A DNA stretch of 28,086 bases from a virus (lineage: Duplodnaviria > Caudoviricetes). Shown here piece after piece: positions 4,497 to 20,180 of this stretch. The stretch is taken from IMG/VR virus record IMGVR_UViG_3300020042_005495, positions 1 to 28,086 of that record, one strand, 5' to 3'. A program made the translations under genes and the position numbers. Positions within the stretch are counted from its first letter, which is position 1; every line of letters starts with the position of its first letter. The notes under the pieces are model-generated. The model was not told the origin of the DNA and did no database searches. It was given only the letters and a program-made list of their open reading frames with translations.

Positions 4497-4504
4497 CACT
4501 CTAC

Positions 4505-4566
4505 GGAGAAGTGCTGGGCAAAGTGATCCACCCAAAGTCTGCCAGACTTCACTCCAGCACTTCTCC
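4505..4566 (+). other. Intergenic long hairpin between gp47 and gp46
   Basis: GGAGAAGTGCTGG (4505-4517) is the exact reverse complement of CCAGCACTTCTCC (4554-4566); inner AGTG/CACT and AAGTCT/AGACTT stems; no U-tract. Confidence 0.75.
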
Positions 4567-4584
4567 ACCCTACAATAAAGCACT

Positions 4585-6788: not shown

Positions 6789-7296
6789 TTTAGTTGCTCC
6801 GGATCATCCATTACTTAGAACAAAGCTGGAGAGATTCAACTTCAGTAATCCTCCAATCAATCCACACGAGCTTGCAAATAACCTTATTGAAACAATGGTT
6901 CATTATAAGGGTATTGGTATCTCTGCTAATCAATGTGGGTTACCCTATAGAGCTTTTGTTCTTTGGTCTAATCCAACAAAGGTAATGTTCAATCCTGTTA
7001 TTGCTGACGTATCTACTGAACAGATTATGTTGGAAGAAGGATGCTTGACTTATCCAAATCTTTTCATTAAAATAAAACGTCCTAAGTTGGTTCGTGTTCG
7101 TTACATGGATTCGTTCGGTGAAGCACAGACGGACAAGTTTACTGGAATGTCAGCACGGTGCGTACTACATGAAATGGATCATCTTGATGGTGTTAATTTT
7201 ACATTCAAGGCAAACAAGTTTCACTATGATCAAGCAATGAGACAAAAGAACAAGCGTCAAAAATCTTATAAGGTGCCAGAACATGAGCAAAATTAA
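6778..7296 (+). CDS. def: Peptide deformylase
   Basis: Three PDF motifs: GIGISANQCG, EGCLT, HEMDHLDG. Confidence 0.93.
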   Translation: MIYDLVAPDHPLLRTKLERFNFSNPPINPHELANNLIETMVHYKGIGISANQCGLPYRAFVLWSNPTKVMFNPVIADVSTEQIMLEEGCLTYPNLFIKIKRPKLVRVRYMDSFGEAQTDKFTGMSARCVLHEMDHLDGVNFTFKANKFHYDQAMRQKNKRQKSYKVPEHEQN

Positions 7297-8134
7297 AGTA
7301 GCCGAGCTGTTTTACAGCTTGCAGGGTGAGGGTAAGTATGTTGGTGCACCTAGTGTGTTTCTACGGACGTTTGGATGTAACTTTACCTGTAGTGGATTTG
7401 GTATGCCTGCAGGAAAGCAATCTACCGAAAGAGAACCAATAGCTGTCAATATAGCACAGTACAAATCATACAATCATCTGCCTCTAGTGCATACTGGGTG
7501 TGATTCGTATGCTAGTTGGGATCCAAGGTTTAAACATCTATCTCCTGTACTTGATACTGATACAATTGTAGAAACAATCATGGAGATGCTACCAGAGAAT
7601 AAATGGAACAACGAGCATCTAATTATCACTGGTGGTGAACCACTTCTTGGATGGCAACGTTCGTATGAAGACTTGCTAACACATGAGAAGATGAAGGGAA
7701 TTAAGTCTATCACATTTGAGACTAACGGTACCCAGAATCTAACAGAAGACTTTAAGAAGTTTTTGTATAATTATTCAAAATATTATAAGGGTGATACAGA
7801 GATTATTTTCTCTGTTAGTGCTAAGCTGAGTCCATCGGGTGAAAAATGGGAAGATGCAATTTTACCTGAGGTTGTAAAGATATATGATTGGTATGGTGAA
7901 GTATACTTTAAGTTTGTAGTAGATAAAGAAACTGACATGTATGAGATTGACCGTGCTATTGAAGCATACCGTGGTGCTGGCATCAATGGGGATGTATACT
8001 TAATGCCTGTTGGTGGTACTGATCAACTTTATTTTAATAATTACAAAGCAGTAGCTGAAATGGCAATGAAACGTGGTTGGAGATATAGCCCTCGTCTCCA
8101 GGTAGACATTTGGCGTAATGCGTGGGGTACGTGA
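7283..8134 (+). CDS. queE: 7-carboxy-7-deazaguanine synthase QueE (radical SAM)
   Basis: E.FYSLQGEG...G.PSVFLR..GC, ITGGEP, ETNGT, S.KL, YLMP, R.SPRL motifs; Fe-S motif CX3CX36C. Confidence 0.88.
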   Translation: MSKIKVAELFYSLQGEGKYVGAPSVFLRTFGCNFTCSGFGMPAGKQSTEREPIAVNIAQYKSYNHLPLVHTGCDSYASWDPRFKHLSPVLDTDTIVETIMEMLPENKWNNEHLIITGGEPLLGWQRSYEDLLTHEKMKGIKSITFETNGTQNLTEDFKKFLYNYSKYYKGDTEIIFSVSAKLSPSGEKWEDAILPEVVKIYDWYGEVYFKFVVDKETDMYEIDRAIEAYRGAGINGDVYLMPVGGTDQLYFNNYKAVAEMAMKRGWRYSPRLQVDIWRNAWGT

Positions 8135-8146
8135 AAAGAATACTTT

Positions 8147-8599
8147 ATGGACATAACAACTGATGTTTTCTTCAAAGCGATGGCTTGCCTTGATCAGCAA
8201 GTCCGACAGAGTGAGATCCGATTTGACACTGTGGTTGGAATCAGTCGTGGTGGTCTTATTGCTTCTACTGTTCTGTCTCACAGGCTTGAGGTTCCTTTAC
8301 GGGTTGTGGAGTGGTCCACAAGAGATACGGGACTCCAATACTGTCCAGAGGATCTCTATCAATCAATCATTGAAGGAAAACGAATACTTCTTGTAGATGA
8401 TATTATAGACAGCGGTAAAACCATTCGAGAGCTGTTGGACATCTGGGGTAGGGAAGATGAGATTAATGTTAGTGTTGCATGCATTGTGTATAACACAGCG
8501 CAAGATCTTGCTGTTCCAGACTTTTGGTTCAGACAAATAGACCGAGATGTAGATAAAGAGTGGGTTAACTTTTGGTGGGAAAAGAATGGACATTTTTAA
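8147..8599 (+). CDS. Type I purine phosphoribosyltransferase (Gpt/XPRT-like)
   Basis: VVGISRGG, PRPP-binding ILLVDDIIDSGKT, C-terminal WVNFWWE (cf. W..FPW of Gpt). Confidence 0.88.
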   Translation: MDITTDVFFKAMACLDQQVRQSEIRFDTVVGISRGGLIASTVLSHRLEVPLRVVEWSTRDTGLQYCPEDLYQSIIEGKRILLVDDIIDSGKTIRELLDIWGREDEINVSVACIVYNTAQDLAVPDFWFRQIDRDVDKEWVNFWWEKNGHF

Positions 8600-9113
8600 T
8601 ATAGCAATAACAAAGTATCCTCCTATCTCTTACAAGTACACAAGTACTAAAGAGTATGTGGATGCCTTTCCAGTAGCATATCGTCAATGGAGAGCTGATA
8701 GTCATTGCAATCTGATTCATGGTTATAGTTTCTCAATGAAGTTCTTCTTTGGTACTAATGATCTTGATGTTCGTAACTGGGCAGCTGATTATGGTGGATT
8801 GAAAGAACTGAAAGAGGTATTACAGGATCAATTTGATCATACACTACTTGTAGCAGAGGATGATCCTGAACTTGAAACATATAAGATTCTGCAAGAGAAG
8901 AAGATGGCAAAGCTAACTATTCTTCCTAAACTTGGATGTGAAGGTCTTGCTGATCAGCTATACAAGTATGTAAACGGCGTGTACATCCCTGACTATTGGG
9001 GTGTGGGTGAGGCTAAGCGTTTATGGTGTTATCGTGTTGAGGTGCGTGAAACACAGTCTAATATGGCTTTCCGTGAAGGGCATCGTGAATGGAATGAGGA
9101 TCTATTTGAGTGA
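8586..9113 (+). CDS. queD: 6-carboxy-tetrahydropterin synthase QueD (PTPS family)
   Basis: SHC..IHGY, D.GGLK.LK..L...FDHT, CEGLA and V.V.ET motifs of the T-fold QueD family. Confidence 0.85.
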   Translation: MDIFNIAITKYPPISYKYTSTKEYVDAFPVAYRQWRADSHCNLIHGYSFSMKFFFGTNDLDVRNWAADYGGLKELKEVLQDQFDHTLLVAEDDPELETYKILQEKKMAKLTILPKLGCEGLADQLYKYVNGVYIPDYWGVGEAKRLWCYRVEVRETQSNMAFREGHREWNEDLFE

Positions 9114-9920: not shown

Positions 9921-9949
9921 TTGACTTATTTTTGAACAAAAGTTATAGT
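9921..9949 (+). promoter_or_regulatory. sigma70-type (early) promoter TTGACT-N17-TATAGT
   Basis: -35 9921-9926, -10 9944-9949; 17-nt block TGTTGACTTATTTTTGA is identical to the one at 15376. Confidence 0.8.
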
Positions 9950-10547: not shown

Positions 10548-10576
10548 TTGACCTAATTTTGGTAATGTCTGATAAT
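10548..10576 (+). promoter_or_regulatory. sigma70-type (early) promoter TTGACC-N17-GATAAT
   Basis: TGTTGACCTAATTTTGG resembles the 9919 and 15376 blocks; 17-nt spacer. Confidence 0.7.
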
Positions 10577-10622: not shown

Positions 10623-10937
10623 ATGGTAACAAAATCTAAAGTGGATCCGGACACTGGTTATACCCCGGAGCAGCAATTGGAGGCTTTCAACAATGTATTC
10701 TCAAAAAAGCCACAGCGCAAACTGGCCCGGAATCCGGATCCAGTAGCGACAGACAAGCCACAGACAAAGTCCGTGGATCTAAAGACTCAGGCAGTAAATC
10801 TGTACGGTCAGGGTCTGAGCGCAAAGGACGTAGCAAAGACTCTTAGCATCACGTATGCTAATGCTTACTACTACAAGCGTTTTGTGAAGAACGAAAAGGC
10901 TGATGCTCGTTTGCAAGAGTCGTTAGCTCGTGTATAA
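10623..10937 (+). CDS. Putative DNA-binding protein with C-terminal helix-turn-helix
   Basis: SD AGGAG; AVNLYGQGLSAKDVAKTLSITYANAYYY fits an HTH pattern. Confidence 0.65.
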   Translation: MVTKSKVDPDTGYTPEQQLEAFNNVFSKKPQRKLARNPDPVATDKPQTKSVDLKTQAVNLYGQGLSAKDVAKTLSITYANAYYYKRFVKNEKADARLQESLARV

Positions 10938-10940
10938 AGC

Positions 10941-10962
10941 GAGGTAGGGGAAACCCTACTTC
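10941..10962 (+). other. GNRA-tetraloop hairpin
   Basis: GAGGTAGGG-GAAA-CCCTACTTC, 9 bp including one G-U; no U-tract. Confidence 0.7.
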
Positions 10963-11120
10963 CTATATTAAAACACATTAGTTGCCCTTATAAGCAATTA
11001 TATTGAGGACTGCGGGATCCTGAACATACAGAGTACCGAGAAAAGCGATAACCAAATTGGAAACGATTTGTAAAGCGTACGGCTGCGTCAGGCTGGTTCA
11101 TTAGTGTGTTTTAATATGGG
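10962..11120 (+). ncRNA. Putative structured ncRNA cassette E1, closed by a 21-bp stem abutting the 5' end of tRNA(CAT)
   Basis: 10962-10982 pairs with 11100-11120 (3 G-U); nested inner stems and a GAAA-capped hairpin at 11053-11070; no ATG-initiated ORF on +. Confidence 0.65.
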
Positions 11121-11194
11121 CCTTAAGCATAAGTGGTATAGGCGCTCGGCTCATAACCGATAGATAGTTGGTTCGAATCCAACAAGGCCCACCA
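11118..11194 (+). tRNA. tRNA with CAT anticodon (Ile2/lysidine-type more likely than Met)
   Basis: GGGCCTT/AAGGCCC acceptor, loop CTCATAA, TTCGAAT T-loop, encoded CCA; A8 and one D-stem mismatch. Confidence 0.85.
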
Positions 11195-11209
11195 ATAACT
11201 GGAGATAAT

Positions 11210-11641
11210 ATGAAATCTTGGACATTGCCTATCAAAGAAAACGAGAACGGTGAAATGTACATCGAGCTCAATGATGAAATCCTCAATGGTAGTGGATTTA
11301 AAATTGGTGATACGTTAAACTGGAAAGATCTTAAAGATGGATCGTACAGCTTAACAAAGGCTGAAGGTGATCTGTACATTGTTGAAGGTATTAGCATGTT
11401 CCACAGTAAGTTTGTGATTCGTGCTAAGGAAGCTGAGCATGCAATGGATGAAGTTGTTATGGATACTGGTGATCTCAAAGAGTTCAGTCAGAATCATGTT
11501 GACTTCAACATCCTTGGTGCTCGTAAGATCACTACTGATGAGTACCTTGAACTATTTGACAAAGATAATTCCTACCTGTCCAGTTGGACGGAGGATCAGA
11601 AGATGGGTTTAATTAATGAGATTGATTATGAAGGTGATTGA
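11210..11641 (+). CDS. Hypothetical protein with N-terminal AbrB/MazE-like domain
   Basis: ATG 11210 after GGAG; G..YIEL..EIL..SG.K.GD.L.W pattern of swapped-hairpin DNA-binding domains. Confidence 0.65.
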   Translation: MKSWTLPIKENENGEMYIELNDEILNGSGFKIGDTLNWKDLKDGSYSLTKAEGDLYIVEGISMFHSKFVIRAKEAEHAMDEVVMDTGDLKEFSQNHVDFNILGARKITTDEYLELFDKDNSYLSSWTEDQKMGLINEIDYEGD

Positions 11642-11786
11642 ACGCTGGTATGAGAAGTTACTAGGCTATGACTGGAACTACAGGCTCCGTAAGCAGTTTA
11701 CCTTGACGGAGTGGATGGTGTTTCTTGTCGTTGGTTTTTTTGCTATATACTTTTTCTTTGACTGGATGATTAACGGAGATCCGTAA
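11628..11786 (+). CDS. Unlisted 52-aa single-pass membrane protein
   Basis: MKVIERWYEKLLGYDWNYRLRKQFTLTEWMVFLVVGFFAIYFFFDWMINGDP; fills the gap exactly with a TAATG overlap into the next gene. Confidence 0.7.
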   Translation: MKVIERWYEKLLGYDWNYRLRKQFTLTEWMVFLVVGFFAIYFFFDWMINGDP

Positions 11787-12451
11787 TGCGCGTACATATT
11801 GGGCCGTACAAGAACTGGGTTGGTCCATTCCAGATTGCTCAAAAGATCTTGTTCTGGATGGATAGGGAAGATGACCGTGTACACAACTTTGGTGAGTGGT
11901 TGGCTGGTAAGGATGATCACTCATGGTTAATGCGATCCTGCCTTTGGGTTGAAAAGTTTAGAAAGCAAAAGATCAGCGTTAGGATTGACAAGCACGATAC
12001 ATGGTCAATGGATCATACTCTTGCTCATATTATATTACCAATGTTGAAACAGCTTCAAGAGACCAAGCACGGATCCCCTCTTGTTGATGATGCAGATGTA
12101 CCGGATGAACTTAAAAGTACTACTGCACCACCTAAAGAAAACGATTGGGACATTGACGGCAACCATTTCAAGCGTTGGGACTGGGTACTTGGTGAAATGA
12201 TATTTGCTTTTGAGTGTGAGTTGAAAGAAGATTGGGATGAAGAGTTCTGGTCAGGTGAATGGGGTGAGACTAAGTGGACTGAAACGAATGATGAACATAC
12301 TGACCCGTTGACTAATAAATCTGAAAAGATGTATACTATGACTAACACAGGAAATCGTACCTGTGATTGGGAAGCGCGTCAGAAAGTTCAGGACCGTATA
12401 TCTAACGGCTTTAGACTCTTTGGCAAATATTATCAAAATTTATGGGATTGA
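11786..12451 (+). CDS. Conserved Trp-rich hypothetical phage protein
   Basis: D.W.MD.TLA.II.PMLKQL, WDWVL.EMI.AF and G..LFGKYY..LWD patterns typical of a phage hypothetical family. Confidence 0.8.
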   Translation: MRVHIGPYKNWVGPFQIAQKILFWMDREDDRVHNFGEWLAGKDDHSWLMRSCLWVEKFRKQKISVRIDKHDTWSMDHTLAHIILPMLKQLQETKHGSPLVDDADVPDELKSTTAPPKENDWDIDGNHFKRWDWVLGEMIFAFECELKEDWDEEFWSGEWGETKWTETNDEHTDPLTNKSEKMYTMTNTGNRTCDWEARQKVQDRISNGFRLFGKYYQNLWD

Positions 12452-12452
12452 C

Positions 12453-12980
12453 ATGAAGAAACTTTATATTGTGGCTGCCATTACTATGGCTTTGACTGGT
12501 TGTGCTTCTGGTCCTAAGATGGTTGACCTTCCTCCATCCAGAGGATCGGTGCCTGAATGGTTTGCTGCTGAACCAGAAAAGAATGGTGATGGTATTGTAG
12601 TAACTGCTACTGATACCTCACGTGATATGCAGTTTGCTATTGACAAAGCGATGATGCAAGGCCGTGTTGAACTAGCTAACCGTATTGGTGTTAAAGTGGA
12701 GTCTCTTGTTCGTGAAAGTGTTAACGAAGAGTCTGGTGGCAAAATGAAGGACATTAATCGTGAGGTGGATCGTGCTTCTAAACAAGTAACTAACCAGATG
12801 CTCTCAATGTACACTCGTGAGAGACTCGTTGTTATGAAAGAAGACGGTGGTTATCGTGCATTCATTATGCTCAAGATATCTGCTGATCAGAGTCAAAAGT
12901 TATTTAATAGCACTAACAAGAGTGGCAAGAGTAGAGAGCAACAACTTAAAGAACTTGATGATGCTATTTCACGTCAATGA
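12453..12980 (+). CDS. Lipoprotein (LPP20-like)
   Basis: ATG 12453; MKK + hydrophobic core + lipobox LTGC; P.WF and A..KA....R..LA motifs. Confidence 0.75.
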   Translation: MKKLYIVAAITMALTGCASGPKMVDLPPSRGSVPEWFAAEPEKNGDGIVVTATDTSRDMQFAIDKAMMQGRVELANRIGVKVESLVRESVNEESGGKMKDINREVDRASKQVTNQMLSMYTRERLVVMKEDGGYRAFIMLKISADQSQKLFNSTNKSGKSREQQLKELDDAISRQ

Positions 12981-13540
12981 ATGTAATTGATAATGCGCTG
13001 GGAAAGAATCAATTTGACCACTTGAGTGGTAGCATCCTTTCCCATGCGATGAGTTGGCAATATGCAAAGAACACTGCACTAGATAACGTCACGGAATCGG
13101 GTTTAGATTATAGCTTTGCACATTTGGTTTTTGATTGTGACTATTCTAGTCATCAACCTGAAACTCAGTTGTTTACTGGATGCTATCTGGCTTTACTTAC
13201 TTGTCTTGATAAGCTAGGTCTTGAACTTGATGAGTTATTCAGAATACGTGTTGGGTTGATTACAAATAAAGGTACATCATATCAACACCACATGCATGTT
13301 GATGATTTATTAAGAAATAATTATAGTATTGGTATATTATATGTTACGTCTAATCAAGATTGCCCCACTATTGTCAAAGATGGATTACATTCTATAAATA
13401 TAGATCACAAACAAAATACATTTGCTCTTTTTGACGGAGATAAGTTGCATTGCAGTACGTCACCAACTTTAGAAGCAGCAAGGGTAAACATTAATTATAA
13501 TTTCAGGTTAAAATGTACACACCAAGATGTAATCCTGTAG
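12977..13540 (+). CDS. 2OG-Fe(II) oxygenase-like protein
   Basis: H-V-D, ILYV, FDG...H.S..P...R..IN.N pattern. Confidence 0.7.
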   Translation: MNVIDNALGKNQFDHLSGSILSHAMSWQYAKNTALDNVTESGLDYSFAHLVFDCDYSSHQPETQLFTGCYLALLTCLDKLGLELDELFRIRVGLITNKGTSYQHHMHVDDLLRNNYSIGILYVTSNQDCPTIVKDGLHSINIDHKQNTFALFDGDKLHCSTSPTLEAARVNINYNFRLKCTHQDVIL

Positions 13541-13582
13541 TAAAACATCTTTGTACACCGAAGTATAGGATTTATACTTTCT

Positions 13583-13614
13583 AAGACCCGAGCATAACAA
13601 CTCGGGTTTTTTTT
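13583..13614 (+). terminator. Rho-independent terminator
   Basis: AAGACCCGAG-cataacaa-CTCGGGTTTT running into a T8 tract. Confidence 0.85.
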
Positions 13615-13624
13615 GTTCTTTCTT

Positions 13625-13714
13625 GGAAGCTTGGCCGAGTGGTTTAAGGCACCTGACTTGAAATCAGACGACTCAGTGATGGGTCCGTGAGTTCGAATCT
13701 CACAGTTTCCTCCA
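13625..13714 (+). tRNA. tRNA-Ser(TGA)
   Basis: GGAAGCT/AGTTTCC acceptor, loop CTTGAAA, long variable arm, TTCGAAT, encoded CCA (discriminator T). Confidence 0.92.
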
Positions 13715-13796
13715 TATTAAAGCACACTTGAATTAATAATGGCGTCCGGAGCTATGGATTGTTTTACGACAGTCCAGGAGTGTGCTTTAGTATGGA
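13711..13796 (+). ncRNA. Putative structured ncRNA cassette E2, closed by a 19-bp stem overlapping the 3' TCCA of tRNA-Ser
   Basis: TCCATATTAAAGCACACTT pairs with GAGTGTGCTTTAGTATGGA (2 G-U); inner hairpin TGGATTGTT/GACAGTCCA. Confidence 0.65.
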
Positions 13797-13832
13797 AACA
13801 TTGACAGGTATATCTAAATTAAGGAGGAACAA

Positions 13833-13988
13833 ATGTCTGCAGAAAAAATTATAAACAAAGCTTTTGGATCTATACCTAAAGAAGTGTCCATGCACATTGG
13901 AGATAATGCATGGATTCCTACAGTAAGAGGAATTAAATATTATAGTATTCTTTTTATTAGGAAATTACAGCGTATGATTAAATGGTGA
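13833..13988 (+). CDS. Unlisted 51-aa basic protein
   Basis: Strong SD TAAGGAGG; MSAEKIINKAFGSIPKEVSMHIGDNAWIPTVRGIKYYSILFIRKLQRMIKW. Confidence 0.7.
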   Translation: MSAEKIINKAFGSIPKEVSMHIGDNAWIPTVRGIKYYSILFIRKLQRMIKW

Positions 13989-14016
13989 GATCTCACCACC
14001 AACAAAGGAGAATAAA

Positions 14017-14619
14017 ATGGCAAATGTATTTTTAATTAGCGATACCCATTTTGGTCACGCTGGTGTCTGCCATTTCCTTCAAAATAATGGCACTAAGCTT
14101 CGGCCGTGGGATGATCCAAACGAGATGGATGAGGCAATGATTGAAAGATGGAACTCTGTTGTCAAACCAAAGGACAAGGTGTATCATCTTGGAGATGTAG
14201 TAATAAACCGTAAGGCTTTGAAGACACTGTCACGTCTTAATGGTGAGAAGGTTCTTATTAAAGGTAACCATGATATTTTTAAGCTCGAAGATTACACAGA
14301 GCATTTTAGAGATATTCGAGGCTACCATGTCCTCAACGGAATGATTTTGAGTCACATTCCTGTACATGAGGAAAGTATTGCTAGGTTTGGTGTTAACATT
14401 CACGGACACTTGCATAGTAATCGTGTGATGAAAAAGATAAGGGTTGAAGAGCGTGCTCCGGAACCTTTTGACCCTAGACCATACACAGTGGAGAAAGAAG
14501 TTATTGATCCAAGGTACTTTAACGTCAGTGTAGAGCAGATTGATTATACACCAATCTCTTTAGAAGATCTTAAACTTAGAATTGAAGAACAAGGTGGTTT
14601 AACTAACTTTAGAAGTTGA
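14017..14619 (+). CDS. Calcineurin-like metallophosphoesterase
   Basis: SDTHFGH, HLGDV, GNHD, SH.P, HGHLH motifs. Confidence 0.92.
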   Translation: MANVFLISDTHFGHAGVCHFLQNNGTKLRPWDDPNEMDEAMIERWNSVVKPKDKVYHLGDVVINRKALKTLSRLNGEKVLIKGNHDIFKLEDYTEHFRDIRGYHVLNGMILSHIPVHEESIARFGVNIHGHLHSNRVMKKIRVEERAPEPFDPRPYTVEKEVIDPRYFNVSVEQIDYTPISLEDLKLRIEEQGGLTNFRS

Positions 14620-14641
14620 TGTGAAAAAATATGGAGTTTAT

Positions 14642-14887
14642 ATGAGTGGCAAAGGTAGCAAACCAAGACCGTATAGCGTTGATCAGAAAACCTTTGATTC
14701 CAATTGGGATAGCATCTTTAACAGAAAGAAGAAGACTGAAGCAGAGAAGTTTGATGATGCTATAATGAAAAACGAGTACTATGATAAGCTGACCACTGAA
14801 GAAGCTTTGACAGAAATGATAAGAATTAGTGAAGAGATGGGTGCTTACATTAATGAACCTATTGATAATCCACTGATTAGGAAGTAG
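14642..14887 (+). CDS. Hypothetical protein
   Basis: ATG 14642 after GGAG; GKGSKPRP..V....F..NWD.IF N-terminus typical of small phage proteins. Confidence 0.7.
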   Translation: MSGKGSKPRPYSVDQKTFDSNWDSIFNRKKKTEAEKFDDAIMKNEYYDKLTTEEALTEMIRISEEMGAYINEPIDNPLIRK

Positions 14888-14892
14888 GTAGT

Positions 14893-15381
14893 GTGAGGAC
14901 TTTACTTTTTACTTTAATGCTGTTACCATCTATTGCAAGTGCTTGCGATAGTTATGTGATTGGTTTCAAAGGTATCAACAATGTATTCGATGACAATGCG
15001 TTCAGACGGTACGCAATGAAGTATAAGGCATGTTCACTTGCCTATAGTTGGAATCAAGTGCATACTGCTGTTAAGTTCATTAACGGTACAAACAAAAGGT
15101 ATCAACTATACGGATTCAGTAAGGGTGCAGAGAGCGTTGGTCAAGTGTTAAGCGTAGTTAAGCGTAAACCATATCATATTGTAACGATAGGGGCATACCA
15201 CACTGCAAATGTTAACTACAGGGCATACGGAGTATCAGCACAAAACTATTTTGATAGCTCCGGAAGTAGGAATAGATCCCCGGGCACACATATAAGAGGT
15301 GTTGATCACCAGGATATGCAGAGATATGTGAATAGTTACTACTTTGGCATCAGATCCTGCCAGCGGAAGAAAGGGTGTTGA
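14893..15381 (+). CDS. Secreted minimal alpha/beta-hydrolase-like protein
   Basis: Signal-peptide-like N-terminus; nucleophile elbow G-F-S-K-G; candidate Asp and His downstream. Confidence 0.55.
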   Translation: MRTLLFTLMLLPSIASACDSYVIGFKGINNVFDDNAFRRYAMKYKACSLAYSWNQVHTAVKFINGTNKRYQLYGFSKGAESVGQVLSVVKRKPYHIVTIGAYHTANVNYRAYGVSAQNYFDSSGSRNRSPGTHIRGVDHQDMQRYVNSYYFGIRSCQRKKGC

Positions 15382-15406
15382 CTTATTTTTGAGTATTGGA
15401 GATAAT
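15378..15406 (+). promoter_or_regulatory. sigma70-type (early) promoter TTGACT-N17-GATAAT
   Basis: Shares TGTTGACTTATTTTTGA with the 9919 promoter. Confidence 0.75.
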
Positions 15407-15437
15407 ATCTTTGTAAACATTGATAAAGGATACCAGT

Positions 15438-15857
15438 ATGAAATTAGCTGCCGGCAAGTATGTGATTGCAGACCCCTGCTACATTCTTAACGAGGAAGTC
15501 TACTTTAGACTGCTTAAAGAGACCAATTACTTCATGTATGAGGCTGTTGACCGCGGTGGTGTAATGGTTGATAGTAACACAGGTAAGTATTTTGCTGTGT
15601 TCAGTACCAAGTATGGTGATGGCACGTACTGCGATGGTAAAGGGTTCAAGTACGGTGTAGATGCAGGTTGCATTGCATGTATTCCTGCTGAGATGTGCGA
15701 GCTTGGTGAAGACCGTGAATACATCAACGAGGTGGAGTTCCCTAGGGATTTTGAGGTGCGGTACGAAGATGGTCTGATTGTGTATGGTCACGTGATCATC
15801 AATACAGATCCGGATGACTTCTACGAGGAAGAAGATAGCTACGAAGATGTAGCGTAA
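15438..15857 (+). CDS. Acidic hypothetical protein (DPCY / T.YGDG.Y / VDAG.I family)
   Basis: ATG 15438 after AAGGA; first gene after the promoter. Confidence 0.75.
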   Translation: MKLAAGKYVIADPCYILNEEVYFRLLKETNYFMYEAVDRGGVMVDSNTGKYFAVFSTKYGDGTYCDGKGFKYGVDAGCIACIPAEMCELGEDREYINEVEFPRDFEVRYEDGLIVYGHVIINTDPDDFYEEEDSYEDVA

Positions 15858-15863
15858 GAAAAT

Positions 15864-15948
15864 GGGAATGCGGCTAAGTAGGAGAGTGGCGGCTGACTGT
15901 AAATCAGTTCTTTCGGGTGAGTAGGTTCGATTCCTTCCATTCCCACCA
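15864..15948 (+). tRNA. tRNA-Tyr(GTA)
   Basis: GGGAATG/CATTCCC acceptor, loop CTGTAAA, variable arm, TTCGATT, CCA. Confidence 0.9.
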
Positions 15949-15956
15949 AGTTTGTT

Positions 15957-16031
15957 GCACCGTTCGTCTATCGGTTAGGACATTGCCCTTTCACGGCAGT
16001 AAGAGGAGTTCGATTCTCCTACGGTGTGCCA
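15957..16031 (+). tRNA. tRNA-Glu(TTC)
   Basis: GCACCGT/ACGGTGT acceptor, loop CTTTCAC, TTCGATT, GCCA end. Confidence 0.92.
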
Positions 16032-16147
16032 TTTGATATGCTGGTTGTAAGCCATGGGCCGCAAGCCTGAGTAACTATCACGATATCTGGTTATCTCGAG
16101 TAACTCCAGTGAGTCGATAGCAAATAGTGCAGCCAGCATTTCAAATG
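16030..16147 (+). ncRNA. Putative structured ncRNA cassette E3, closed by a 20-position stem overlapping the 3' CA of tRNA-Glu
   Basis: CATTTGATATGCTGGTTGTA pairs with TGCAGCCAGCATTTCAAATG (one U-U, two G-U); inner stems GGGC/GCCT, CTATC/GATAG, CTGG/CCAG. Confidence 0.62.
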
Positions 16148-19177: not shown

Positions 19178-19489
19178 ATGCTACATCACAGTGCTGAAAA
19201 CAAGGGTAGTTTTATTTCAAAGCAATATGATTATGTAGACTTTGATCCATTTAACAAGAAGCATAGGATTGCTTTTGTGGAATTTAAACTTTCCGGAAAG
19301 TGGCCTAGTAGTCTTCGATTCAATCTTGATCCGTTGTACAATAATGTACCTTCGATGATCAATCAGCAGCTGCTCGACTTCTACTTTAACAGAGATCGAG
19401 CTATCCCTGAAGAATTAAAGCAAAGATACATTACACAAAATGCTATCTACCCCATTGGAACAGCAACAGTAGGAGAACAATATGAGTGA
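19178..19489 (+). CDS. Hypothetical protein
   Basis: ATG 19178 after GGAG; FDP..K.HR..F..F...G.W pattern; overlaps the folE start. Confidence 0.7.
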   Translation: MLHHSAENKGSFISKQYDYVDFDPFNKKHRIAFVEFKLSGKWPSSLRFNLDPLYNNVPSMINQQLLDFYFNRDRAIPEELKQRYITQNAIYPIGTATVGEQYE

Positions 19490-20180
19490 TGAAGGTATGC
19501 TTCAACAGGTATCGGAAGTAATTAAACAACGTATTAAAGCTGATAAGGCACAGTTCAAAGCTAGTGATAACATCTCTAAGTATGTCTATGATAACGAGTT
19601 GCCAGTACTGGTAGAAGAAGTTAAGTGGAAGTTTCAAAAGGTATTAGATTCACTTATTATTGATACAGAGAACGATCCTAATTCTAAGGATACGGCTAAG
19701 CGTTTAGCCAAGATGTATGTGTATGAGTTAATGTCCGGTCGTTATGAACCTATGCCAGATGTTACCTCATTCCCTAATGAAGGTGAGAACCGATTTGAAG
19801 GCATGCTTGTAGTACGAGCTGAGATTCGTTCTATGTGTTCACACCATCACCAGCCTGTTAAGGGGGTTTGCTACATTGGTATCATTCCTACAGGTCGTGT
19901 GATTGGATTGTCAAAGTACGTACGTCTTGCTCAGTGGTGCGCTCGTCGTGGTCAGTTGCAAGAAGAGTTAGTCAATCAGATTGCACGAGAGATTATGACA
20001 GCCACCGATACTGAGAACGTTGCTGTATACATTGAAGCTACTCATGGCTGCATGGACAATCGTGGTGTGATGGCTCATTCATCAATGACTCAGACGTCTG
20101 CTGTACATGGTCTGTTCCATAATAATAGTGTTAAGCAAGAGTTCTTTGATAATATTAAATTGCAGTCAATGAGGAGTTGA
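19482..20180 (+). CDS. folE: GTP cyclohydrolase I
   Basis: TAKRLAKMY, SMCSHHHQP, GLSK..R, R.QLQE, EATHGCM..RGV motifs. Confidence 0.95.
   Translation: MSDEGMLQQVSEVIKQRIKADKAQFKASDNISKYVYDNELPVLVEEVKWKFQKVLDSLIIDTENDPNSKDTAKRLAKMYVYELMSGRYEPMPDVTSFPNEGENRFEGMLVVRAEIRSMCSHHHQPVKGVCYIGIIPTGRVIGLSKYVRLAQWCARRGQLQEELVNQIAREIMTATDTENVAVYIEATHGCMDNRGVMAHSSMTQTSAVHGLFHNNSVKQEFFDNIKLQSMRS

Follow-up and report, generated by a model that had tools for sequence, protein, structure and literature searches.

Three stem-closed small RNA cassettes at tRNA ends of a T4-like phage, including one family with comparative evidence for self-pairing

The window analyzed here is a whole virus record of 28,086 bases (IMG/VR record IMGVR_UViG_3300020042_005495) from an uncultured T4-like phage. 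Its T4-like gene content comprises a tail tube, UvsY, a late sigma factor, an SbcCD-like nuclease, a clamp, a clamp loader, and a translation repressor. ARAGORN places nine tRNA genes in the window, all on the + strand, and three of them abut a non-coding insert closed by a long stem. We refer to these inserts as cassettes E1, E2, and E3 and to their interiors as cargos. The cassettes are real and widespread, and they represent three uncatalogued RNA families, probably of the same kind as the stem-released stable RNAs of phage tRNA clusters, one of them with strong comparative evidence for self-pairing.

All parts of the cassettes lie on the + strand. E1 (10962–11120) reaches into the 5′ end of a tRNA with a CAT anticodon (11118–11194; ARAGORN and Rfam). 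Its 21-bp closing stem, which includes three G-U pairs, is formed by a 5′ arm (10962–10982) and a 3′ arm (11100–11120) around a 117-nt cargo (10983–11099), a multihelix fold with two hairpins capped by GNRA-type loops and a long irregular helix. E2 (13711–13796) follows tRNA-Ser(UGA) (13625–13714; ARAGORN), whose 3′ end prolongs the 19-bp closing stem (arms 13711–13729 and 13778–13796, two G-U pairs) around a 48-nt cargo of two hairpins (13730–13777). E3 (16030–16147) follows tRNA-Glu(UUC) (15957–16031; ARAGORN), whose 3′ CA prolongs a 20-bp stem that includes one U-U mismatch (arms 16030–16049 and 16128–16147). The 78-nt E3 cargo (16050–16127) is a three-way junction whose joining strands are highly conserved; it carries a short hairpin (16056–16068) and a long two-part hairpin.

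The original prediction, made from this DNA alone, had described three such inserts with the same interior lengths, and both points are confirmed. Indeed, the E1 and E2 stems are the two longest unbroken stems of the window, whereas the longest in five Markov-resampled windows measures 16–17 bp. The proposed homology of the E1 and E2 stems also holds, all three differences between them preserving pairing. The E3 stem has no sequence similarity to either, yet the E3 cargo sits in a stem of the E1/E2 type in four related loci (L274, L283, L301, and L371). Two other claims stand in part. Pairing of the stem base into a tRNA terminus applies to E2 and E3, where the 3′ end of the tRNA is free for it, whereas the outer pairs of E1 compete with the acceptor stem of tRNA-CAT; here, the minimum-energy fold gives up the three outermost pairs in favor of the tRNA and an 18-bp stem (10965–11117). 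Independent folding of each interior is borne out by the folding energy of E2 (z −2.66) and by covariation among homologs, but not by the energies of E1 (z −0.07) and E3 (z +0.18), whose interiors alone fold no better than shuffled sequences.

A scan with the E1/E2 arm pattern (70 and 8 viral loci and at least 118 metagenome loci) yielded the further copies that had been anticipated, namely at least 146 distinct elements in at least 196 viral and metagenome loci. Among the matches listed (146 elements), 62 begin 0 nt after a tRNA, and in 65 the end lies no more than 10 nt 5′ of one; 88 adjoin a tRNA on either side and 40 on both sides. For 16, the retrieved DNA contains no tRNA, a group that includes some short loci or chance matches. 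A wider stem search gave 295 distinct elements in 184 blastn clusters. Restricting these to tRNA-adjacent or consensus-like elements left 132 clusters with cargos of 27–215 nt, 10 with a T-arm-like word, a number that is an upper estimate for this sample, as clustering of short sequences splits families. One cargo (L043:1501–1569) has a T-arm followed by a D-arm-like hairpin and resembles a permuted tRNA. Best-stem scores over 815 distinct tRNA ends in 248 loci are bimodal, at ∼7 and at 15–22; the loci were picked for having an element, and the distribution is not a genome-wide rate. A cassette lies directly 3′ of tRNA-Glu(UUC) in 34 of 64 and of tRNA-Lys(UUU) in 23 of 40 distinct genes, with none directly 3′ of tRNA-Asp (0/36), tRNA-Ser(GCU) (0/39), tRNA-Cys, tRNA-Gly(UCC), tRNA-Val(UAC), or tRNA-Phe. 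Eight cassettes without an upstream tRNA (L001, L008, L044, L046, L051, L053, L068, and L074) have in common a GTGG..AAAAA-type word on the tRNA strand just before position 1501, possibly a promoter or an antitermination signal.

The earlier statement that no named family is recognizable agrees with the scans that were run, in which no element matched Rfam. A scan of the window with the Rfam 15 covariance models at E ≤ 5 returned tRNAs only, and no element was matched in 40 of the 78 pattern loci (gathering score) or in 14 cargo loci (E ≤ 1). For E3, there were no matches in cellular genome contigs or plasmids and only chance-level matches in GenBank phages; the E1 region gives sequence matches only via its tRNA. 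In a literature search confined largely to open-access papers and short of the older work on T4 and T5 RNAs, we found no published description of the cassette family, and the accessible text of PMC12990946 and PMC12412911 names no such RNA. The accessible part of PMC10690425 reports 8,495 candidate viral structured RNAs from IMG/VR, of which E1–E3 may be unnamed members; none of six motif terms is present in its readable supplementary files.

RNase III processing stems include those formed by rRNA leaders and trailers. In contrast to these, the stem considered here encloses a small RNA gene, borrows the CCA of a tRNA for its outer half, and is predicted to be cleaved. According to the accessible part of PMC1540722, the Escherichia coli RNase III site consists of a helix of 11 bp in which a proximal box of four pairs is combined with a distal box of U-A/U-G, and one set of these suffices. 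We fixed the numbering of the stems by T7 R1.1 and scored the E. coli consensus determinants out of 6. In one register, E1 and E2 score 5/6 and E3 and T7 R1.1 score 6/6, whereas other registers reach at most 3. Like T7 R1.1 and the minimal substrate of that paper (PMC1540722, same part), the stems of E1–E3 offer at least 11 bp inside the cut and pairs of the proximal and distal boxes, and they have no antideterminant; deviations are the lack of a G-C pair at proximal position 1 in E1 and a C-G in place of the U-G pair in the distal box of E2. The predicted cuts fall after 10969 and 11114 in E1 (leaving a 3-nt leader on tRNA-CAT), after 13718 and 13790 in E2, and after 16036 and 16142 in E3, and they would release RNAs of 145 nt (10970–11114), 72 nt (13719–13790), and 106 nt (16037–16142). 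The fit to published determinants in a single register supports RNase III as the likely cutter, as had been suggested.

The same determinants recur in the wider family. In 130 elements, position +9, which the search pattern left free, is U-G in 77, C-G in 44, and U-A in 9, and position +10, also left free, is U-A in 102. Pairing drops from 0.88 at +10 to 0.45 at +13 and thus decays past +11/+12, like in T7 R1.1. Stems outside the pattern exceed shuffles of their base-pair order (4.32 versus 3.74; n = 65), as do those without the family word (4.26 versus 3.81; n = 35) and E3-type stems (4.56 versus 3.84; n = 41), with 0 of 500 shuffles as high in each set, an effect that is modest and comes from related members. 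Read inside-out, the non-pattern stems score lower. None of five related phage records encodes an RNase III, and the enzyme would therefore be that of the host. The original prediction had tRNA processing contribute to the release. Three E3 members have no tRNA within 600 nt and two E1 members none nearby, and because cassettes persist without a tRNA within 500–600 nt, release by RNase III itself is more probable.

In tRNA-adjacent elements, the CCA columns are paired with the far arm in 82–85%, as would be expected if the stem gated the maturation of the tRNA, keeping its CCA end concealed up to the RNase III cut, and the strong bias toward tRNA-Glu and tRNA-Lys could be read in the same way. 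However, where no tRNA is present, the outer pairs are kept in other letters and look like helix length for the enzyme, and 7–8 bp remain after the cut. We therefore regard gating as very improbable and as a weaker reading than RNA release.

At the sole column where the pattern permitted both, G-U outnumbers A-C by 21 to 1 on the tRNA strand (130 elements), which indicates that selection acts on the RNA and bears out the RNA-level function on the + strand proposed earlier. This bias argues against selfish or neutral DNA-level elements with an inverted repeat as recognition site, comparable with miniature inverted-repeat transposable elements (MITEs), repetitive extragenic palindromic (REP) elements, or attC sites. 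Such elements would account for the patchy presence of the cassettes, their terminal inverted repeats of 15–20 bp, their insertion at the ends of tRNAs, and the occurrence of directly adjoining ones (10 pairs in the 295 elements). They would not account for stems that retain pairing and RNase III positions under free variation of the sequence, or for copies in the same genome with unrelated interiors. Also, no transposase or integrase is called next to the cassettes in the window, apart from one weak ATPase cross-hit that falls on the clamp loader. Membership in the MITE, REP, or attC classes was rejected on the strand asymmetry and the unrelated interiors, and a selfish or neutral origin in general is extremely improbable.

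The cargos are conserved gene families in their own right and not free payload, and the proposal of a standard stem around varied cargos is supported. Searches with the E1 cargo gave 13 loci and nine distinct members including the window, and those with the E2 cargo gave 15 loci and eight distinct members, two chance matches having been dropped in each case. The E3 cargo, for which 60 distinct members are known in all, was found in a first search at 80 loci with 55 distinct matches, among them three chance matches, one that is cut off, and one (L315) without the third motif, though its palindrome is visible by eye. Changes on both sides of a pair occur in 14 of 59 pairs of E1, five of the 14 within the cargo, and in 24 of 34 pairs of a 48-row E3 alignment, where 0 of 500 shuffles are as high and slid controls are far lower.

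Cargos also change place. E1 follows tRNA-Glu in four members and tRNA-Lys in two, is without a tRNA in two, and precedes tRNA-CAT in the window. E2 lies directly 3′ of tRNA-Lys in 7 of 7 relatives but 3′ of tRNA-Ser in the window. In the closest relative (L079), E3 is nearly unchanged, E2 sits at tRNA-Lys, another cargo occupies the tRNA-Ser site, and the tRNA-CAT site is without E1. In a second relative (L082), the Ser site is empty, a syntenic Ser-Ser tRNA pair lacking the cassette. Both relatives have in common a non-coding stretch of ∼200 nt just 5′ of tRNA-CAT (L079:9100–9333 and L082:9100–9332), where the window has E1.

These observations bear on the possibility that the stems are mere processing stalks for cutting the polycistronic tRNA transcript and the interiors by-products. 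The contribution of the tRNA CCA to the helix, the 40 of 146 listed elements that touch a tRNA on both sides, and a few stems with a loop of only 4 nt (L086, L090, and L040) would fit, loops below 15 nt being found in 11 of 295 elements, mostly ordinary hairpins. In contrast, the interiors are covarying families, cassettes persist without a nearby tRNA, the Ser-Ser pair of L082 does without one, and only three of the nine window tRNAs have one; moreover, a by-product would not hold a palindromic loop through 21 changes, as E3 does (see below). We consider stalks improbable.

Several known functions were tried for the cargos. Antisense guides were rejected for the window, where the longest matches elsewhere are 10–12 nt and at chance level. 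A likeness of words in E3 to twister fails because bases needed for the pseudoknot covary with the closing stem. The hammerhead word order occurs in 1 of 295 elements and in none of E1–E3, and known self-cleaving ribozymes gave no Rfam match in the window or in 14 cargo loci. Y RNA/YrlA was rejected as no TROVE (Ro60) gene is present in five related phage records, four of them at least 90% complete; a host Ro60 is possible. A role as type III antitoxins (tandem pseudoknot repeats found next to, or directed against, a type III toxin) or as their phage mimics may be considered for E1–E3, which are single copies and have no Rfam match.

The apical loop of the long E3 hairpin contains a palindromic hexamer (16095–16100), which on comparative evidence is a predicted kissing loop. 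A palindromic hexamer ends 9–11 nt before a conserved word in all 50 cores, compared with a mean of 2.8 and a maximum of 10 in shuffles, and shuffling of the 3′ columns leaves a mean of 3.6 palindromes. The hexamers of these cores take ten forms: positions 2/5 show each of the four standard pair types, and the central dinucleotide varies among three. On a tree for which the hexamer was left out (a weak tree, from short sequences), 21 parsimony changes are needed. In a held-out test with other anchors, 56 loci provided 10 unseen cores, all palindromic, and an eleventh hexamer. Restriction avoidance might conceivably drive the change of hexamers; the phage DNA may already be protected by other means (see below). 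The central pairs change together, and as they cannot form within a single loop, this points to pairing between molecules. Retroviral dimer-initiation loops likewise place a six-base palindrome between unpaired bases at a hairpin apex, and it can be swapped for other palindromes; E3 at most works alike, being an unrelated, separate small RNA of a DNA phage. Like the central pairs here, adjacent loop bases that covary were used to recognize such loops in OLE and GOLLD (accessible part of PMC12286853). Judged from sequence comparison, E3 RNA probably pairs with its own copies via this kissing loop. The self-complementary loop pattern of E3 is new beyond the original prediction. A second, short loop of E3 shows a 4-nt palindrome in 45 of 50 cores.

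The loop hexamer of E2 (13745–13750) is self-complementary in all eight members, with four sequences, one of them only when G-U is allowed. Here, it is mainly the outer pair that varies, and an intramolecular pair closing a tetraloop could also explain the pattern. Changing palindromic hexamers are also seen in cargo clusters 6, 8, and 12 (e.g. L012, L070, and L036), which have too few members for testing.

E1–E3 have an architectural precedent, by analogy, in the stable RNAs III, IV, and 2H of phage T5 (misc_RNA features of AY543070), which are annotated as “stable RNA with unknown functions,” measure 100–170 nt, and lie in the phage tRNA cluster. The annotated ends of these RNAs are placed within a long closing stem and leave 3′ overhangs of 2, 1, and 3 nt, and the stem of RNA III starts at the CCA of the preceding RNA. 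Similarly, E1–E3 have ends paired in a long stem within a phage tRNA cluster and abut tRNA ends. The loop of the long hairpin of RNA III (L329:2285–2390) holds a palindromic hexamer identical to one of those of E3. However, the interiors have no sequence match (blastn), the E3 model matches T5 only through the stem (E ∼0.09 and 1.3), and the T5 stems lack a standard sequence, whereas, in the cassettes described here, the same stem sequence is found around many cargos.

Phage T4 also has stable RNAs of unknown function in its tRNA cluster, rnaC and rnaD (species 1 and 2, NC_000866), and rnaC has two short words in common with the E3 core. Homology was rejected, as neither is matched by the E3 model and neither has a long closing stem (9–11 of 21 positions paired).

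The accessible part of PMC12286853 describes GOLLD (RF02032) and ROOL as RNAs of phage tRNA islands whose function is unknown and which form assemblies of their own via kissing loops, including symmetric ones. They comprise several hundred nucleotides compared with ∼106 nt for E3, which does not match their models and whose hexamer occurs in 11 forms. By analogy, E3 would behave like a miniature of the GOLLD/ROOL theme and not as a member. An Rfam scan found GOLLD in 3 of 40 related loci (L008:347–811, L043:2072–2492, and L059:1617–2083); in L059, the cassette begins ∼10 nt after GOLLD.

That RNA-only cages of this kind (GOLLD and ROOL; PMC12286853, same part) lie in tRNA islands, GOLLD in some of the very loci scanned, would suit released RNAs that are structural or catalytic, such as scaffolds, small cages, ligand binders, or new ribozyme folds, and serve phage replication or translation rather than a conflict with host defense. 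The E3 junction strands are near-invariant (two of the three served as search anchors), and a pair of self-complementary loops could allow rings or chains to be assembled. On the other hand, more than 130 unrelated cargo clusters with differing sets in close relatives are more in keeping with an arms race than with a core function, and there is no Rfam ribozyme or riboswitch match. We judge such a role fairly unlikely.

Our overall reading, which we hold to be reasonably probable, is that E1–E3 are small non-coding RNA genes, unrelated to one another, with one RNase III expression frame in common. The cassettes would be transcribed together with the tRNAs. The closing stem would act as a one-sided site for the host RNase III, with 11 bp inside the computed cut and 7–8 bp outside, the outer part often being supplied by the CCA of the preceding tRNA. 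One staggered cut would yield an RNA of 70–150 nt with paired and protected ends and leave the tRNA with a trailer of 4–5 nt or a leader of 3 nt, to be removed by ordinary trimming. As the comparison of relatives shows, stem and cargo are gained, lost, and moved as a unit, the likely route being recombination between look-alike stems and tRNA ends. E3 would then pair with a second copy via its covarying palindromic apical loop and, for most of the relatives, also via the second, 4-nt palindromic loop, so that dimers or larger assemblies would form; E2 may do likewise. Finally, the RNAs might be accessory tools in phage–host conflict, their compact folds binding or distracting RNA-binding defense proteins of the host, e.g. 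tRNA-cutting nucleases. This decoy role is a tentative guess.

A number of points weigh against this reading. The determinants were taken from E. coli RNase III, which may not be the enzyme of the phage host, and conservation across species does not extend to the distal box (accessible part of PMC3867540). In T5 RNAs III, IV, and 2H, the best registers lie 2, 1, and 2 nt off the annotated ends, and 2H scores 3/6. Of 14 RNA runs that contain 5–11% of the searched words, four metatranscriptomes were examined; these consist of contigs that carry no ends, strand, or level, with one listed piece over E3 at depth 2, and missing coverage over E1 carries no weight as evidence. The homologs are related, and shuffle counts consequently overstate independence. 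The median folding z of the cargos is only −0.3 (80 of 132 clusters tested), and the Glu/Lys bias may stem from few ancestral sites. With respect to self-pairing, the short E3 loop of the window itself is not palindromic, and some E3 hexamer duplexes are weak (−5.9 to −6.8 kcal/mol). A palindrome in E1 was rejected, since it is broken in 5 of 9 members and its changing base covaries with an intramolecular partner, and palindromic loops were rejected as a class-wide trait (67 of 132 clusters versus 69.5 in shuffles; 37 versus 43 for GC-rich ones). Self-pairing would thus not be a property of the class, but one of E3 and perhaps of E2 and some small clusters.

Extended further, freshwater-type T4-like and larger phages would hold a plug-in library of more than 100 unrelated small RNA genes in one RNase III frame, swapped between tRNA slots. 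Some of these, like E3, would self-assemble, with the palindromic loop as a fast-changing lineage identity code by which the RNA of each lineage would find its own kind, and the assemblies would form a protein-free counter-defense guarding the tRNA-Glu/tRNA-Lys pool. As a whole, this scenario is decidedly unlikely.

The RNase III half-site at a tRNA end provides a rule for finding such RNAs that gives exact predicted ends, and a small sample already contains more than 130 candidate cargo clusters. In the tRNA regions of T4 and T5, stable RNAs still carry annotations of unknown function. The accessible part of PMC12990946 calls oligomers of RNA rare in nature, and E3 is a candidate of ∼100 nt with unusually clear comparative evidence for pairing between molecules. 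The frame itself represents a natural design for freeing a stable small RNA from a tRNA operon.

Three look-alike σ70-type promoters (9921–9949, 10548–10576, and 15378–15406; repeat families D3/D4) are found in the window, where promoter-like sites in total are not above shuffles. The one at 10548–10576 (+ strand, 10/12 consensus match) probably drives an open reading frame (ORF) at 10623–10937, E1, and tRNA-CAT. The one at 15378–15406 (+ strand) lies 5′ of the ORF at 15438–15857, tRNA-Tyr, tRNA-Glu, and E3 and may drive them. A terminator-like hairpin with a T run (13583–13610) lies 14 nt 5′ of tRNA-Ser, so that the E2 transcript may need read-through. Between the SbcD-like and SbcC-like genes, there is a strong intergenic hairpin (4503–4568; z −5.24) with a closing stem of 14–15 bp, which has no tRNA nearby and by sequence stands outside the E1–E3 stem family. 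Genes for QueE-like and QueD-like proteins and a GTP cyclohydrolase (FolE-like) at 7283–9113 and 19482–20180 suggest 7-deazaguanine DNA modification, and the phage DNA may already be protected against restriction.

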